The notes under the pieces: generated by a model | Told to the model about the DNA's origin: nothing | Database searches by the model: none | What the model saw: the letters and a program-made list of their open reading frames with translations, nothing else | Part shown: positions 4,506 to 46,031 of the stretch, one piece after another | Numbering within the stretch: position 1 is the stretch's first letter | Layout: each line of letters starts with the position of its first letter | Translations under genes and position numbers: made by a program | Source: a virus | Lineage: Duplodnaviria > Caudoviricetes | Reading direction: 5' to 3' (one strand) | IMG/VR virus record: IMGVR_UViG_3300033475_000014 | Location: 1-64,000 of that record | DNA: 64,000 nt

Positions 4506-4721
4506 TTATACATCTTCAGTCATACCGTTTATGGACTTAATGACTTCGGTCATGTCTAGATCTTCTACAACCTGTTTGTATAGTTCTCGTTCAACATCTT
4601 TAGTGTGTTCTTCTTCTACATAACCATACTTAGCGTTTCCTTCGTCGTCTTCGCCTATCTTCCTGTACTCTTTAGACTTTACTTGCTCTGGTGCCGTCTT
4701 GAGGATAGTAATCTTGTACAT
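4506..4721 (-). CDS. Hypothetical protein
   Basis: ORF tiles the operon. Confidence 0.7.
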   Translation of the reverse strand: MYKITILKTAPEQVKSKEYRKIGEDDEGNAKYGYVEEEHTKDVERELYKQVVEDLDMTEVIKSINGMTEDV

Positions 4722-5600: not shown

Positions 5601-5710
5601 TGAGTTGCGGTGTATTGCTTTGGTCATATAAAGTCTTGATACTCATCCGCAACTCGCTCCCTATTCCCACAGGGATAGAACGCCCTATGCCCACCCTAGG
5701 GCGTTTTCTT
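5601..5710 (+). ncRNA. Candidate antisense sRNA of phage A
   Basis: TTGCTA-16-TATGAT promoter with extended TG; 9-bp stem 5602-5610/5647-5655 displaying loop GGTCATAT; terminator-like hairpin AACGCCCT/AGGGCGTT followed by T-rich tract. Confidence 0.65.
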
Positions 5711-5964: not shown

Positions 5965-6217
5965 ATGCCTCGTGACTTTTAATGAAGCTTGTGATATTAT
6001 CTGGTGTAGGAGTTTACATAGTTGTCTCAATACTCTATGTAAGCTCTCAGCCAAACAAACTGGTTTGGGGTATTGCAAAGGACAAGTATCTGCGCTAATA
6101 TAAGAAGCGAGACAACTATGTAACCAATGACTGCCCCACCAAAGGCAGTTTTTTGGATCTAAAAATAACACCCCGGCCGGGTCATTAAACGAACAATCCG
6201 ATTCGTATCTATTACTT

Positions 6218-9614: not shown

Positions 9615-9899
9615 GTGCGAGGTATGCAAAGAGTTATAACACCTGAACAAGGACGTGTACTCGTAAAACTTGATACATCTGAGTATGGTGAGGTACCAGT
9701 GCCTGAAAAAACCTATGATAGTGTGACAAGCGGTACTATCCTAGCAATCAATGAGAACGATGTAGATTACCAATATTTAGTAGGTCGTAAAGGCTACTGG
9801 AAATTGTACAAAGACGATCTACGTGTAGCGAAGCTCCCTACTGGAGAGAAACTAGCACTTATATTAATTAAAGATATTGATGGGACATCCGAAGAATGA
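9615..9899 (+). CDS. groES: GroES-like co-chaperonin
   Basis: P..GRVLVK...G.ILAI...VG...Y...E.LALI.I.DI pattern; ATGA overlap with groEL. Confidence 0.75.
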   Translation: MRGMQRVITPEQGRVLVKLDTSEYGEVPVPEKTYDSVTSGTILAINENDVDYQYLVGRKGYWKLYKDDLRVAKLPTGEKLALILIKDIDGTSEE

Positions 9900-11419
9900 A
9901 AGCAACCGACATTGTAACTGAGAGAGATGTACTACAGAATAAAATCGGTAGGGCTAGCGAGCAAGTATATAATGTAGCTAAAGCAGCCTATGGCCCAAAA
10001 GCAGGGAATGTTATTGTAGGATTTAAAACAGGCGCTCCACTTCTCTCTAGGGACGGTGTGACCAATATTAAGAGAATTAAACTCGCCGACCCTATCGAAG
10101 ACGATATTGCTAAGGTTATTGTTACCGCTTCTGAGAAAAACAACCAGAAGGTGGGTGATGGTACGACAGCAGTTGTTATACTCTCGCACCATCTTCTACA
10201 GGCCGCTCGTAAGCTTGAGAGCAAGGGAGTGAATCCTATGGAAGTTTCAGAAAAACTCCGCCACGCTGAAAAAACAGTTATTGAATACATTGATTCAGTT
10301 AAGAAGAAAACCACCGAAGAAGACCTTACTAAGGTAGCTACCGTATCATCAGGCGACCCAGAACTAGGCGCAATGATCTCTGATGTACTCCAGGAGGTTG
10401 GCGTAGATGGCGGGGTAATGATTGAGCAATACGAAGGGCTTGGTGTCCATAACGATATTGTTGATGGCTTCTACTTCCCCCGTGGGTATAAAGATACTGC
10501 TCTTATTAACGACCAGTCTTCTAATCAATCTCTCCACAAGGATGTAGCTATTCTTATTTCTAATAAAGTATTCAACACAGAAGTAGAAATCGCCCCCGTC
10601 ATTAATGAGATCGTCCGTGCAGGATATAAAGAACTTATCATCGTGGGTGAGGTGAATAACGCCGCTCTTGAAACACTCTTAATGTCACGCGCTAAAGGAC
10701 TTCTTCTAGCTGTTCCCGTAGACCCTCCCTACACTGTGGGCGGTCGCACTCTATTTTTAGACGATATTGCTATTAAAACAGGTGCAACCGTATATGATGG
10801 GGTTAATTTCTCTGTAGAGAATCATTTAGGGTTCGCTAGTGAAGTTCTAGTAACTGAGCACTCAACTACTATCCTAGAGGGCGACAGTGAAAAAGAGCTT
10901 GTAAAAGACCGTATCAAAAGCCTTAAAGAACAACTCAAAGACGAAGAACACCCACAGGCCATTCAATTCATTAAAGAACGTCTTGCACGCCTTACGGGTA
11001 AAATGGCTATTATACGCGTAGGTGGAGCTATTGAGTTTGAGCGTGAAGAGACTAAGCTACGTGTTCAAGACGCAGTATGCGCTGTACAGTCTGCTATGAA
11101 AGACGGAATCTTGCCAGGGGGTGGCTCTACTCTTGCTCGCGTAAGTGGTACCGAGTTTGACGAAGCGTTTAAACAACCATTTAAAGTTCTCTTCGATAAT
11201 GCAGGTCTTAACCCAGAATCTTACTTAGCCCGTTTAGAAGACGCAGAAGTGTGGCAAGGATTTAATCTCCGAAACATTACAGAGAAACCTGTGGATATGC
11301 TTACAGAAGGCGTTATTGACCCATCTTTGGTTATCACTGAGGTTGTCACTAACGCTGTCGCATTAGTAAGGGGTCTTATTACAGCAAGCGCCGCTTTGCC
11401 TGACCCAGAAAAGGAGTAA
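9896..11419 (+). CDS. groEL: GroEL-like chaperonin (divergent, no GGM tail)
   Basis: YGPKAGNV, RDGVT, VGDGTT, R.ARL.GK.AIIRVGG, RVQDAV.A, GILPGGG, GVIDP motifs. Confidence 0.95.
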   Translation: MKATDIVTERDVLQNKIGRASEQVYNVAKAAYGPKAGNVIVGFKTGAPLLSRDGVTNIKRIKLADPIEDDIAKVIVTASEKNNQKVGDGTTAVVILSHHLLQAARKLESKGVNPMEVSEKLRHAEKTVIEYIDSVKKKTTEEDLTKVATVSSGDPELGAMISDVLQEVGVDGGVMIEQYEGLGVHNDIVDGFYFPRGYKDTALINDQSSNQSLHKDVAILISNKVFNTEVEIAPVINEIVRAGYKELIIVGEVNNAALETLLMSRAKGLLLAVPVDPPYTVGGRTLFLDDIAIKTGATVYDGVNFSVENHLGFASEVLVTEHSTTILEGDSEKELVKDRIKSLKEQLKDEEHPQAIQFIKERLARLTGKMAIIRVGGAIEFEREETKLRVQDAVCAVQSAMKDGILPGGGSTLARVSGTEFDEAFKQPFKVLFDNAGLNPESYLARLEDAEVWQGFNLRNITEKPVDMLTEGVIDPSLVITEVVTNAVALVRGLITASAALPDPEKE

Positions 11420-35189: not shown

Positions 35190-35568
35190 TTATACGGCTA
35201 CGCAGTTCTTCATCTGTAAGTTGCTTTGCTTTATTAATACTTTCACCAGCACTTGTAATATCTGTTTCAGTCTTTTCAACATATCCATGCTTACCACTGA
35301 GTATAAGCTTAGCAATAGTAGCGTTATACTTTCCTAGGATAGAGTTTTGTATCAGCTTTTGCCCTTGGGCTTGACGTAATTCCTCAACGATGTCGGAAAA
35401 CTCTTTATTATCTTTTTCCCATTGGTATATTGTGTCTCTGTTAATATGTAACGCAAGTGCGAGCCCCTCTATTGTTGGTAAGAGGGTATGGATACTCACG
35501 TCTATCTCTTTCAAGTATTTACGAGCTTCCTCAATTAGTTCTGGTGTAAGCTTTGTAGGTCTAGCCAT
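35155..35568 (-). CDS. terS: Terminase small subunit
   Basis: MARPTKLTPEL...PTIEGLALAL.I.RDT...W; start reassigned to MARPTK behind a TGTGCTATATT promoter. Confidence 0.85.
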   Translation of the reverse strand: MARPTKLTPELIEEARKYLKEIDVSIHTLLPTIEGLALALHINRDTIYQWEKDNKEFSDIVEELRQAQGQKLIQNSILGKYNATIAKLILSGKHGYVEKTETDITSAGESINKAKQLTDEELRSRINDELERQKLSD

Positions 35569-36348: not shown

Positions 36349-36882
36349 TTACTCTTCTTTCTGTGATTGCTTAAGGGTGGCCAATTTCTGTATTGCGTCT
36401 ACAGTAAACATCCCTGGATCATTAAGCCATTTGTTTAACGTTGGTCGAGATATTCCTAATAAATCGGCTATCCACTCACGTGTGTACAAAGGATTGCGCT
36501 TTGCATAAAATTGTCGTGCTTTTATACGTTCGCTTTTCCGTGCTTCCAAGGCTATGCGTTGGTCACGAGATTTGATGAGGTGCACTATTAAGTCGAGTTC
36601 TTGAGATTCGTTCCTTGAGCTCTCATATAGACATCCGCCGTGATGGTTTGCTTCGCAATAGCCTAATGCACACTTTATCTTCTGTCGTAGTCCATCCTCT
36701 TCACCAACCACTTTGAGGACTTCCTTAAGGGGGTTTTCCACAGATGGATGTAGCTCGCTTCTAAACTGTACATATGATTTGAAGTCAAGTTCATCAAACC
36801 CATTCTCTTCTCTAATATACCCTTTGAACAGCTGTATGGCTTCGTCCAGGTTCTTAGGCTCTTTATTAGGTGTGTCTGCCAT
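36349..36882 (-). CDS. Hypothetical protein with C-terminal HTH
   Basis: REWIADLLGISRPTLNKW. Confidence 0.7.
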   Translation of the reverse strand: MADTPNKEPKNLDEAIQLFKGYIREENGFDELDFKSYVQFRSELHPSVENPLKEVLKVVGEEDGLRQKIKCALGYCEANHHGGCLYESSRNESQELDLIVHLIKSRDQRIALEARKSERIKARQFYAKRNPLYTREWIADLLGISRPTLNKWLNDPGMFTVDAIQKLATLKQSQKEE

Positions 36883-37373
36883 TACTTTGCCTCCAATAGC
36901 TCACTATTTTCGTAGATGTTGCCGATGACTTCGACATACTGAGCCGTCTGATGCGCGTTCATAGGGCTCCAGTTAGTACCGTCTGCCCAAGGTGCCGCAT
37001 GATCCAGTTCAAACCAAGCGCCTTCGGCCGACCATCGAACCTGGAATAGTCGTGACGATGGCTCTTTATCCTTCCATTCTGGTGCTGCCTCATGGCGACG
37101 GACGACATCCCCCTCATAAATCTCCACACCGTTCTTGTCTTTGAGGCCGGTGTATTGCATGAGGTATACTGTATTGTTATCGGAATAGAAGTTGCCATAG
37201 TCATCTTTGCGCCAGTTACTATTAGGTGAATAGTGAAATTCTCGAAACGGTAGTACTACCGATAAGCCCATTGCGTGGTGCCAAGTAGTTATTTGCTCTA
37301 GCATCTTCTTTGCTACGCTGTCCCACGCTCTGAATTTAATTTCTCGTTGTTTACTCACGTCATTAACTCCCAT
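36882..37373 (-). CDS. YopX-family protein
   Basis: REIKFRAWD...LMQYTGLKDKNGVEIYEGD...EVIGNIYEN. Confidence 0.9.
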   Translation of the reverse strand: MGVNDVSKQREIKFRAWDSVAKKMLEQITTWHHAMGLSVVLPFREFHYSPNSNWRKDDYGNFYSDNNTVYLMQYTGLKDKNGVEIYEGDVVRRHEAAPEWKDKEPSSRLFQVRWSAEGAWFELDHAAPWADGTNWSPMNAHQTAQYVEVIGNIYENSELLEAK

Positions 37374-43003: not shown

Positions 43004-43579
43004 CTATTCTTTCTTCATATCCTTAAGCTGTTGGATGATTGACGATGCGTCTGCGGCTGAGTGAATCCTGTCATATACTGCAACGAGCCACTTTTCATCT
43101 TTACCTAACCCTTCACCGAGCGTCTTGATAAGGTCTAGCTGGTTAGCTGTAGCAGGTCGAGCAGTAGATGCCTTAGGTGGTTCAGGTTGCTTCTTCTTTG
43201 CACTCCCTGCGTTACCATCGTCGTCTTCATCTGCTACCAAGCCAGTCATAGCCATATCGCCATATCGTCGTAGATATGTTACAGCCGATCCAACTGATTG
43301 AGGGTCGTTCTTGACTGGGTTTAGTTTCCACTCGCCAGTGATATGCTCGCCAGACTCGTGGATAAGGTAAAACCTTAATCCATTCTCGTTTTCTAGAATT
43401 GTCGGGACTGCTATAAGTGCTAGTTTGTTCTTCTCAAGTAGCGGCTGTAGAAGCTCCCTAACCTCTGGTAGGGGTGCGTAGCTGTTTTTATAGAATGGAT
43501 TTGTTGCCGACTTATCTACGGCCTTTAGTTCTTTTTGCAGGCTAACAATAGCCTTGGATATTTCTACTCCTATATTCAT
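43004..43579 (-). CDS. ERF-family single-strand annealing recombinase
   Basis: K.ATNPFYKNSYA.L..V...PQ.VGSA.TY.RRY...TG...DEDDDGN. Confidence 0.9.
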   Translation of the reverse strand: MNIGVEISKAIVSLQKELKAVDKSATNPFYKNSYAPLPEVRELLQPLLEKNKLALIAVPTILENENGLRFYLIHESGEHITGEWKLNPVKNDPQSVGSAVTYLRRYGDMAMTGLVADEDDDGNAGSAKKKQPEPPKASTARPATANQLDLIKTLGEGLGKDEKWLVAVYDRIHSAADASSIIQQLKDMKKE

Positions 43580-43619
43580 AAATTCCTTTCTCTATTCTGT
43601 ATTGCAAAATTTAGTAGTG

Positions 43620-43740
43620 GATTGAGTGTATGGTGCTGATAACAAAGACGGCTTCACAGTCACCTTATGCTTGGTGCATCCGACGGTTGATTCCCCTTAT
43701 CGCATCTTTAGGTTTGCTACCAGCACTATTACACTCAATC
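43620..43740 (-). ncRNA. Long-stem RNA, family B copy 3
   Basis: GATTGAGTGTA-A-TAGTGCTGGTAGCAAA ... TTTGTTATCAGCACCA-TACACTCAATC. Confidence 0.75.
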
Positions 43741-44011
43741 ATTCATTACCCACAAGGGATGGCCTCAGCCTACCCAAAGTCAACTATTACCCCAGTGTGA
43801 CGCCACCCTTTGTGAATAACGAACATGCATACCTTAGTTCACTAATCCCTCCAGTAGGTAGTTGTCGCATTTCGATAAACTGTCGGCTCTATATAAATCT
43901 TTAGCCCGTTCGTAATGCTTCATACTTCCACCATCTCTTGGTAGTAGTTACTTCGTGGCGTTTACCACTCAGTTCTTGCAAATGAATTGTTAAGGTCTTA
44001 CACCTTTGGAC

Positions 44012-44037
44012 ATATCAATCTGCAATTGGTACATCCA
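44012..44037. repeat. 26-bp exact direct repeat, copy 1
   Basis: ATATCAATCTGCAATTGGTACATCCA, also at 44482-44507. Confidence 0.95.
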
Positions 44038-44047
44038 TTCGGTGAAA

Positions 44048-44078
44048 CAAAAATAACCGCCTCGTTGGCGGTTTATGT
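44048..44078. terminator. Intrinsic terminator
   Basis: AAAATAACCGCC-TCGTT-GGCGGTT. Confidence 0.7.
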
Positions 44079-44122
44079 CTTTATATCCCGGCGGCAACGA
44101 GTATTGGCGTAGAACGGGTAAT

Positions 44123-44145
44123 AAAAAAGCACCCTATATGGGTGC
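44123..44145 (-). terminator. Terminator after the half-tRNA
   Basis: GCACCC-ATATA-GGGTGC-T6 on the minus strand. Confidence 0.8.
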
Positions 44146-44157
44146 AAAGTAGTCTTA

Positions 44158-44198
44158 GTTTACAAAACAGCTGCTCTAACCAGCTGAGCTAAAGCGGC
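44158..44198 (-). pseudogene. 5' half of tRNA-Thr(UGU); att-like site
   Basis: GCCGCTTTAGCTCAGCTGGTTAGAGCAGCTGTTTTGTAAAC; tRNA similarity stops 2 nt past the anticodon loop. Confidence 0.85.
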
Positions 44199-44207
44199 AC
44201 TTACGCT

Positions 44208-44236
44208 ATTTTAGCAGTGGTTGGCTGTAAACTCAA
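44208..44236 (-). promoter_or_regulatory. Promoter driving the half-tRNA
   Basis: TTGAGT-17-TAAAAT with extended TG. Confidence 0.75.
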
Positions 44237-44312
44237 GACAAAACCCATATTTTCTACAAATTTTGTTTGAAAGGTCCACGGTTATTTGAAGTAATTCATT
44301 TAACCTACTTGC

Positions 44313-44341
44313 ATTGTAGCAAACTGTGTGCGTTTTGTCAA
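44313..44341 (-). promoter_or_regulatory. Leftward early promoter of phage B
   Basis: TTGACA-17-TACAAT with extended TG. Confidence 0.85.
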
Positions 44342-44373
44342 CATGCTTACGGCTGGAGTGGTATAATAGAAGT

Positions 44374-44447
44374 GGTAGCTTTATTTTTCTAGATGCAAGT
44401 CACTACCTATTTATTAAAAGACTTCTGATTTATCAGAGGTCTTTTTT
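44374..44447 (+). ncRNA. Candidate sRNA
   Basis: TGGTATAAT (44359-44367) upstream; AAAAGACTTCTGA/TCAGAGGTCTTTT terminator at the end. Confidence 0.45.
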
Positions 44448-44483
44448 ATTGACCTTAGTCCCCTTCTTTGCTATGATATAAAT

Positions 44484-44534
44484 ATCAATCTGCAATTGGT
44501 ACATCCAGCCTCGTCATGAGGGCTGGTATTTTTT
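44484..44534 (+). ncRNA. Candidate ~50-nt antisense sRNA of phage B
   Basis: TTGACC-17-TATGAT promoter (44449-44477) with extended TG; repeat copy 2 forms its 5' end; CCAGCC/GGCTGG hairpin plus T6. Confidence 0.7.
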
Positions 44535-44818
44535 GTATCAAAATCTCATTTCGTTGTATTACAACAATCTATACGGTATGTTCGCAGCCATACCGGATAA
44601 CTAAAACTGCTGGATTTTTCGCGTGCTGAGACAAATTACCCGCTCTGTTTTCCCTAACAACGGGTGACCTACTCAGTACACGAAAATTACCAAATACATT
44701 GTGGGATGCAAGCCAATAGAACGTTAATAGCGGTGAGGCCCGGGGCTTACAGTTGCATGGTTATAGATTCATAAAGGGGTAGACTTTCCTGCTGGGTTAG
44801 TAGGGGATAGAGGGATAT

Positions 44819-45004
44819 ATGGTTAAAGTTTCTAAAGAAGAATGTGAACACGAGTGGAAGAAGTTCAAGGAAACAGTACGTGTAGAGCGCACAGAGGCTC
44901 AGTTACGTAAGGGACAACATTATACGGGTAACGGTGCTCACTTCATCGTAAGAGCCTGTATGAAGTGCAAGAAGAAACAACGGGTAGACTACATAGTCGA
45001 ATAG
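44819..45004 (+). CDS. Small Zn-binding protein
   Basis: CEHEW...CMKC. Confidence 0.65.
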   Translation: MVKVSKEECEHEWKKFKETVRVERTEAQLRKGQHYTGNGAHFIVRACMKCKKKQRVDYIVE

Positions 45005-45188
45005 GAGGAATAGTTAAAAAATGGTACACAAAATATTATCACTATATACTTTGTGGAGCGTACGTATTAAGATTATCGAAATACGTCATGTAAATGGCCT
45101 AGCACCTCTGTTCTTGTAGGTACCAGGATTCAATTATACGCTCCATGAACCTACGCTATTAATTTTAGTGTGAGAAAGGAGCGTATTT

Positions 45189-46031
45189 ATGTTGCTATCT
45201 GAAGCGATAAGCGAGTTTATTAGATATAAGGTCGTGCGCCGTGGTTCTACCCGCGATACTGAGATTACCTACCGAAGCACTATGAATGGGTTCCTTAAGT
45301 GTGTCGGGGACATTCAAGTAGAAGATTTAACAATTTACACAATAGATTCTTATGCCGATGAGCTATCTCTTAAAGGATACATGCCTAAAACATATCATAA
45401 CAAGATGGCTACTGTTAGAAGCTTTGTAAGATTCCTCTATGCTAAGGACCTTACTAACATACGACCAGAATCTGTAGAACTCCCTAAGTCCGTAAGTCCC
45501 GAGGCTAACTTCCTCTCCCCTGCCGAACAAGAGGTACTGTTATCTGTTATTAAGAAGCCACGTGATCTCGCTATTGTGCGGGTGATGATAGCAAGTGGTG
45601 CCCGAGTGTCAGAACTTACTAATCTGAAATATGACGACTTCTACATTGACTCGATCGTTATCCAGCACGGTAAGGGCGGGAAATCTCGTCCTACTTTTTT
45701 AACTGAACGAGCTGCAGAGAGTTTACAAAACTACCTAAAAACTAAACGAAGAACAGAGTACTTGTTTACAAATAGTTTTGGCGAGAAGCTATCGCGCCAG
45801 TATGTAGCAAGGATAGTCTCACAGTACGCCTCTGACGCTGGTATCGGTAAGAAAGTGACCCCTCATACACTGAGGCACTCATTTGCGACGAATATGCTGC
45901 AGAACGGTGCCCGGGTAGAAATAGTCCAGCCGTTAATGGGGCATGCAAATATTAGGACCACGCTTATATATGCGCACTTCACTAACAATTATCTTAAAGA
46001 AGAGTACCAGAAGTACGCAAGCAAGGCTTAA
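45189..46031 (+). CDS. int: Tyrosine recombinase/integrase (XerC/D-like, no arm-binding domain)
   Basis: GARVSEL, GKGGK.R, HTLRHSFAT, MGHANIRTT.IY; SD AAGGAG. Confidence 0.95.
   Translation: MLLSEAISEFIRYKVVRRGSTRDTEITYRSTMNGFLKCVGDIQVEDLTIYTIDSYADELSLKGYMPKTYHNKMATVRSFVRFLYAKDLTNIRPESVELPKSVSPEANFLSPAEQEVLLSVIKKPRDLAIVRVMIASGARVSELTNLKYDDFYIDSIVIQHGKGGKSRPTFLTERAAESLQNYLKTKRRTEYLFTNSFGEKLSRQYVARIVSQYASDAGIGKKVTPHTLRHSFATNMLQNGARVEIVQPLMGHANIRTTLIYAHFTNNYLKEEYQKYASKA

Follow-up and report, generated by a model that had tools for sequence, protein, structure and literature searches.

A putative antisense RNA facing the early-operon leader across attP in a temperate phage of Candidatus Saccharibacteria

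The attP region and its repeated sequence

The window (the whole stretch of DNA that we analysed, 64,000 nt in length) belongs to a viral record of 76,769 bp. The right end of this record, 76643-76769 (12643-12769 in L010), is 100% identical to 36859-36985 over 127 bp. Since an overlap of this kind is typical of the output of an assembler on a circle, we infer a circular phage of about 39.8 kb, running from 36859 to 76642, which is probably the real phage. It contains early genes (Erf, NinG, HNH, YopX, SSB), the terminase, late and lysis genes, and the integrase together with attP. If the circle holds, positions 1-36858 of the window would be a second, related path devoid of integrase; we noted there a lysis-proximal gene for a GroEL-like chaperonin (9896-11419, + strand; PHROG 5725, E 1e-98). 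The original prediction had given the leader to a "phage B". The 127-bp repeat and the prophage junctions described below indicate that this leader and the sRNA with its integrase form one phage joined at attP and not two neighbours, and the boundaries then drawn for phages "A" and "B" are probably wrong. Outside the record, blastn against the INPHARED phage records gave no match, single-protein scans of IMG/VR returned nothing for the integrase and one distant locus lacking the region for Erf, and a search with the integrase in 401 Patescibacteria genomes gave only XerC/D-like genes of 36-46% identity and no such prophage. The contig P0001 encodes an integrase which is 90% identical. The features of the region are collected in Table 1.

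Table 1. Predicted and observed features around attP, in window coordinates
Feature	Positions	Strand	Basis
First part of the early operon, with a 29-aa ORF (43923-43834), then non-coding DNA and the Erf recombinase gene (43579-43004)	43004-43923	-	
boxA-like motif CCTTAACAA, 16 nt past the target	43987-43995	-	sequence motif
Mini-ORF MSKGVRP (stop), probably no gene	43990-44013	-	ATG is ATT in L003 and L006
Putative target of the antisense RNA in the leader of the early operon (copy 1 of the repeat)	44012-44037	-	repeat and leader layout
Terminator T2, immediately preceding the target when read leftward	44055-44073	-	consensus scan
Terminator T1, straight after the tRNA half	44129-44145	-	consensus scan; same arrangement in L012, L019, L092
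attP core, 43 bp: 5' half of tRNA-Thr(UGU), identical to host attB; tRNA nt 1 is 44198	44158-44200	-	both prophage junctions
Promoter P2, TTGAGT-17-TAAAAT, starting at the tRNA 5' end	44208-44236	-	consensus scan
Promoter P1, TTGACA-17-TACAAT (11/12), candidate early promoter upstream of attP	44313-44341	-	consensus scan
Second small unit: promoter TCAACA-18-TATAAT, ~75-nt RNA, terminator 44420-44446	44338-44446	+	consensus scan
sRNA promoter TTGACC-17-TATGAT, with TG before the -10	44449-44477	+	consensus scan
Predicted sRNA, ~51 nt: 5' seed (copy 2, 44482-44507) and intrinsic terminator	44484-44534	+	consensus scan
XerC/D-like tyrosine integrase of 280 aa, on the strand of the sRNA and downstream of it	45189-46031	+	

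The attachment site was located from two kinds of junction. In L008, the host genes for tRNA-Thr(GGU), tRNA-Tyr and a complete tRNA-Thr(UGU) are joined to the window from 44198 on, the phage side carrying the promoters, copy 2 of the repeat, the integrase, and the lysis and late genes. In L006, the phage side is the early one, with its genes, copy 1 and both terminators; it runs up to 44200 and is there joined to unrelated host DNA, which carries a TTGCCA-17-TAAAAT promoter. The complete tRNA beside the integrase arm is also found in L011, and the tRNA half beside the early arm in L092. As the junctions share 44158-44200, the window shows attP, with one copy of the repeat on each of its arms. 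This 43-bp core occurs once in the record, and an exact scan of IMG/VR for it gave 0 matches. The exact tRNA is present in 26 genome contigs, nearly all from Candidatus Saccharibacteria MAGs and without an adjoining integrase, which identifies both the host and the empty attB. The phage is a tRNA-targeting temperate phage of Candidatus Saccharibacteria.

The repeat itself is an exact direct repeat of 26 nt (44012-44037 and 44482-44507, 470 bp apart), found at the coordinates originally given for it. We found no third copy, at a tolerance of 3 mismatches, anywhere in the window or the 76,769-bp record, and none of 100 shuffles produced a match. The promoter and the terminator that had been proposed to frame copy 2 were both returned by our consensus scan, the terminator with a stem at 44505-44526 and a U tract reaching 44534. 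Copy 2 starts 5 nt past the -10 of the promoter and the predicted RNA start lies at ~44484, so that the repeat would be the extreme 5' end of the RNA, which we call its seed; the predicted RNA folds into this seed followed by the terminator hairpin. In Rfam, it has no match at gathering score and, at E up to 5, chance-level matches only. The 26-mer is common to four metagenome or virus contigs, each with a single copy, and an exact scan of genome contigs for the seed gave 0 matches. In L007 and L008, the seed and the terminator are identical to those of the window while the promoter spacer and the upstream DNA diverge; the -10 reads TATAAT there, and a 247-bp segment stands in for 44368-44443, which places copy 2 about 170 bp farther from the core.

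Several further elements lie on this arm. The promoter of the second small unit is back-to-back with P1, the two having their -35 region in common, and in L007 and L008 the same TCAACA-18-TATAAT promoter drives a 70-aa Cys-rich ORF which replaces the ~75-nt RNA unit. We found no complement of this unit (44338-44446) in the record. As to the parallel that the original prediction drew with phage A, the "phage A" sRNA (5601-5710) gave matches of 11-14 nt. Within the 650 bp between the sRNA and the integrase, a GGGT-RR-CTAC-type motif is present in three copies (44656-44677, 44774-44785 and 44976-44997); a related sequence with a long hairpin occupies the same place in L012 (4745-4805). This motif may represent a structure of the integrase leader or protein sites. 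A Cys/His-rich ORF of 61 aa (44819-45004, + strand), with a sub-threshold Integrase_Zn match, lies just upstream of the integrase gene and could encode a small regulator or an excisionase.

On the other arm, copy 1 is the one place in the 76.8-kb record that is complementary to the seed. Read on the minus strand, it lies 17 nt past the U tract of T2 and 88 nt ahead of the first ORF endowed with a Shine-Dalgarno site (ATG at 43923). In L003 and L006 the target is kept while the adjoining bases change. The mini-ORF that had been reported after copy 1 does exist in the window, but its ATG is an ATT in these two closest relatives and we saw no counterpart of it in the other seed families; we rejected it as a conserved element.

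The strong promoters of the region, P1 and P2, sit on the integrase arm and point into the core, and an equivalent strong promoter is found on the same arm in relatives. A transcript reading through the tRNA half would run into T1, then T2, and come next to the target, followed by the boxA-like motif and finally the early genes. At the prophage junctions L006 and L092, the upstream position belongs to the host tRNA promoter; P1 and P2 would then drive the rebuilt tRNA operon of the lysogen, as the layout of junction L008 suggests. Between the terminators and the early genes, the scan predicts no sigma-70-like promoter, be it in the window, in L012 or in L019. Hence the origin of the early transcripts, and the presence of the target on them in vivo, rest on an assumed read-through of the terminators. 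In the circular phage, P2 should also yield an RNA of ~75 nt made of the 5' half of tRNA-Thr and of the T1 hairpin (44129-44200, - strand); the host promoter should yield the same RNA in lysogens, and it may be a stable by-product.

Copy 1 had alternatively been proposed to belong to a paralogous sRNA transcribed on the plus strand, from a weak TTGCAA-17-TACACC promoter to the hairpin at 44055-44073. In its favour are the palindromic nature of this hairpin and a T-rich tail that L012 shows on the opposite strand too. Nevertheless the plus-strand tail is poor in the window and absent from L019, the key A2 and T6 are missing from the -10, and at the targets of the relatives L012 and L019 we saw no promoter-like site in this orientation. 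We regard this second sRNA as extremely improbable.

Seed families and co-variation among related phages

By aligning integrase homologues we retrieved 80 related loci. Relatives whose integrases are 42-55% identical use the same tRNA core, and their integrase gene adjoins the core, inverted with respect to the early genes. More distant relatives, with integrases of 27-37% identity (L048, L051, L060, L067, L030, L028, L036 and L044), carry 5' halves of other tRNAs in their attP; the design recurs in them, their seeds being unrelated in sequence and 18-23 nt long. Altogether we distinguish eight seed families: the window; L012/L011; L019/L018/L016; L014; L048/L051/L060/L067/L030; L028; L036; L044. 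On the sRNA side, the common design consists of a sigma-70 promoter, a seed at +1 and a terminator, the promoter being strong in all relatives. On the leader side, the reverse complement of the seed stands just after an intrinsic terminator, which lies 2-20 nt ahead of it in every relative, and usually before a boxA-like motif. The duplexes measure 21-26 bp, and each relative has one complementary site.

In L012, for instance, a target of 24 nt (6105-6128) comes right after the second terminator; its exact inverted copy (4561-4584) starts 6 nt past a TTGACA-17-TATTGT promoter and runs into a terminator. L018 and L019 contain a 26-nt pair with one mismatch in the same layout, the sRNA lying 2.3 kb upstream of the integrase, and L014 has a 21-nt pair with two mismatches after TTGACT-17-TATTAT. 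A boxA-like motif of the TTAACAA type is found 3' of the target in seven of the eight seed families, at a spacing of 2-86 nt. A CTTAACAAT-type motif was seen downstream of the target in the leaders of the window (43987-43995), L012, L014, L019, L036 and L048, and a similar motif, CCTTTGACAATTT, is carried by a Saccharibacteria rrn leader (L132, ~1425-1440). This recurrence bears out three elements of the original prediction: copy 2 as a self-contained sRNA gene, since the unit formed by promoter, seed and terminator is found in eight families; copy 1 as an antisense target in the leftward early leader, matched by leader sites in the same eight; and the boxA-like site of that leader.

The distance between the two partners varies: 470 bp in the window, 1.5-3.4 kb in relatives in the attP form (3.3 kb in the circular genome G008) and 30-35 kb in prophages (30 kb in the provirus G005, 34.6 kb in the integrated prophage G001). 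The sRNA gene lies 0.4-3.3 kb from the core; the target, by contrast, always follows a terminator. The repeat is direct in the window, where the integrase and sRNA diverge from the early genes, and inverted in the co-directional relatives. The orientation of the copy thus flips with the module formed by the integrase and the sRNA, so that the transcribed strands are always complementary.

Co-variation of the two copies had been set beforehand as the check to be made in relatives, and it was found, as compensatory substitutions and as a 1-nt deletion. The prophage G001 departs from L012 by one position in the sRNA (35286-35309) and by the matching one in the target (696-719). L067 differs from L048 by a 1-nt deletion in both partners, and L030 differs from L067 by a substitution in both. 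The mismatches are three in number (one in L019 and two in L014), and in each of them a G of the leader is opposite a U of the sRNA. This means that pairing is kept as RNA, a wobble argument which rests on these three positions. Hence the data fit a selection of the seed-target pairing as an RNA-RNA interaction. Read from the sequences, the co-variation argues that the pairing is selected, not that its effect is inhibitory; that both RNAs are made, that the pairing acts negatively and that it plays a role in immunity is what we infer.

Some members of the set depart from this scheme. L020 possesses an sRNA-like unit, and its target was not found in its 96%-complete record. In G004 the target is present, and no sRNA copy within 3 mismatches was found. 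To look for further members of the L048 family we ran a 16-mer scan, which gave chance matches and, apart from these, no contig outside the set. We also observed tandem 24-bp iterons, in 3-4 copies, upstream of the integrase in the L019 group (L015 1-95, L016 3317-3392, L017 320-412, L018/L019 3287-3383), which may be a replication origin.

The same comparisons bear on two readings in which no RNA pairing is involved. The first takes the repeat as the att core, or as a functionless scar of duplication or insertion, on the ground that it brackets, as a direct repeat, a segment of 444 bp beside an integrase. The true core is however another sequence, 44158-44200, which lies between the repeats and is present at both junctions and in the host tRNA. 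Nor would a scar be expected to recur in eight families as different co-varying sequences placed at the +1 of a promoter. We give this reading, already raised as an alternative in the original prediction, next to no credence.

The second takes the copies as DNA sites for a protein, either arm-type sites of the integrase or operators of an unrecognised repressor. They do lie on the two arms of attP, and a small unannotated protein could exist. However, the integrase has the SAM-like and catalytic domains only and no arm-binding domain, copy 2 is ~170 bp farther from the core in L007/L008 and 1.4-3.3 kb from it in relatives, and no dyad symmetry extends beyond 6 bp. The near-perfect identity over 21-26 bp, the fixed context of promoter and terminator, the strand-dependent orientation and the restriction of mismatches to G:U would all be unexpected. 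Protein sites are in our opinion very unlikely. Lambda-type arm sites, considered as a candidate in their own right, were rejected on account of the 280-aa Int without arm-binding domain and of the large and variable distance from copy 2 to the core (about 0.28 to 3.3 kb).

How the pairing may act

We consider it probable that the sRNA is a trans-acting antisense RNA which silences the read-through into the early operon and thereby gives immunity, and the sequences point to a programmable RNA-based immunity switch. A strong constitutive promoter would produce the ~51-nt sRNA, the 5' 24-26 nt of which would pair perfectly with the leader of the early operon, devoted to recombination and replication, at a site with two tandem terminators just ahead of it and a boxA-like element behind it. 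In the circular phage, P1 and P2 would read through the tRNA half toward the early genes. The host tRNA promoter would replace P1 and P2 at this position in the lysogen, these two now driving the rebuilt tRNA operon. T1 and T2 would stop most of this transcription and the sRNA would neutralise what passes, its targets in the lysogen being the read-through transcripts initiated at the host tRNA promoter. When such a lysogen is superinfected, the sRNA would neutralise the leaders of incoming phages having the same seed, and would thus ensure maintenance as well as immunity. Different seeds would correspond to different immunity specificities.

This silencing appears feasible since no CI-like repressor was recognised near the switch, since RNase III and NusB are present in hosts, and since the boxA-like motif recurs in seven of the eight families. 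The two host proteins were found in three Saccharibacteria genomes with the exact attB tRNA sequence, and Hfq was not found in these three, which fits an antisense RNA acting through a long duplex and independently of Hfq. Against it, the true repressor could be a small protein that escaped recognition, for example the product of the Cys-rich 61-aa ORF (44819-45004). The simplest outcome of the pairing would be the cleavage of the long perfect duplex by RNase III. Another route could be an interference with antitermination of the boxA/Nus type, although the spacing of 2-86 nt between target and motif argues against a simple occlusion of boxA. When we folded the leaders with the target blocked, no consistent alternative terminator or structure masking the Shine-Dalgarno site appeared, so that no attenuation model can be derived.

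A different reading reverses the roles of the two RNAs. Regulation would come from the leader RNA, and the integrase transcript would have the nascent sRNA as its 5' leader; the pairing would unfold the sRNA terminator, so that transcription proceeds into the integrase gene. The 3' end of the seed does supply part or all of the 5' arm of the sRNA terminator, by 3 nt in the window and in L014 and by 7-8 nt in L012, L019, L048, L036 and L044. Moreover, neither the window (+ strand, 44535-45188) nor L012 has any predicted promoter or terminator from the sRNA terminator to the integrase on the same strand. On the other hand, an overlap of just 3 nt in the window is small, and in L019 the sRNA is 2.3 kb away from the integrase, with ORFs and promoter-like sites in between. 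We find this reciprocal regulation rather doubtful, and it may coexist with silencing.

Both effects can be combined with the geometry of integration into a joint reading, a lysogeny without repressor which would rely on RNA and on integration geometry, with an integrase triggered by the leader and with seed-specific immunity groups. We propose it only tentatively, as unlikely in its entirety. According to it, attP would separate the early operon from its single strong promoter, so that integration would by itself switch the early genes off and pass this promoter on to the tRNA operon that it rebuilds. In an infection, the leader RNA would be abundant; by pairing with the nascent sRNA it would melt the terminator of the latter and turn on the integrase. 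After integration, the leader would fall and the sRNA would terminate and accumulate, establishing a programmable immunity to superinfection. The seeds would then define immunity groups within a large family of phages, those of Saccharibacteria and possibly of other hosts.

Relation to known systems and significance

We found no description in the literature of this system or of sRNA regulation in Saccharibacteria phages. The functionally closest case is the CI RNA of the satellite phage P4. Through seqA and seqC, this RNA pairs with the nascent leader and keeps the early, replication operon off (as summarised in PMC4825925); it is processed from the very leader under its control and has two targets, which flank it. 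The likeness lies in the proposed control of an early operon by a small RNA and not by a repressor protein. Unlike the CI RNA, the sRNA described here has its own promoter, as it does in the relatives, with the seed at +1, on the strand opposite the early operon. It has a single target, a 5' seed of 21-26 nt with perfect complementarity in the window and no Rfam similarity, and its gene can be 30-35 kb from the target in the prophage.

The sar/ant pair of P22, OOP/cII of lambda and c4 of P1 are likewise based on short antisense RNAs which end at a terminator, are perfectly complementary to their target and damp a transcript of the lytic side, RNase III being implicated for OOP. However, sar, OOP and c4 overlap the gene that they act on or are cut out of a transcript shared with it, whereas the partners are here separate loci on opposite arms of attP, without any overlap. 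Hence their complementarity must be kept by co-evolution, as is observed.

The position of attP recalls the mycobacteriophage BPs, where it lies inside the repressor gene and integration changes the C-terminus of the protein (PMC4557955). In both cases attP is inside a regulatory region and integration rewires expression, an analogy of logic only: here attP is in non-coding DNA between the promoters and the leader, the partners are RNAs, and the promoters are donated to the tRNA operon. As to the boxA/Nus leaders (rrn and the lambdoid nut sites), in which boxA is bound by NusB/S10, the likeness consists of a motif of the CTTAACAAT type 3' of the target in most families and of the NusB of the host; we identified neither an N-like protein nor a boxB. 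To our knowledge, an sRNA site beside a boxA/Nus leader is not a described feature of the nut or rrn systems.

As far as we know, the phages of Saccharibacteria (CPR/Patescibacteria) are almost uncharacterised, and we know of no account of how they control lysis and lysogeny. The circuit described here would be the first regulatory circuit proposed for them. Its specificity determinant would consist of RNA only, 21-26 nt in length, and exists in at least eight co-varying versions. It would thus add a type that is encoded in trans and independently transcribed to the few RNA-based phage immunity systems (P4, P1, P22). It would also be a case in which attP is set between a promoter and the early operon, the phage giving its promoters to the tRNA operon that it disrupts. 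Finally, the seed-target pairs are possible in silico markers of immunity groups in metagenomes.
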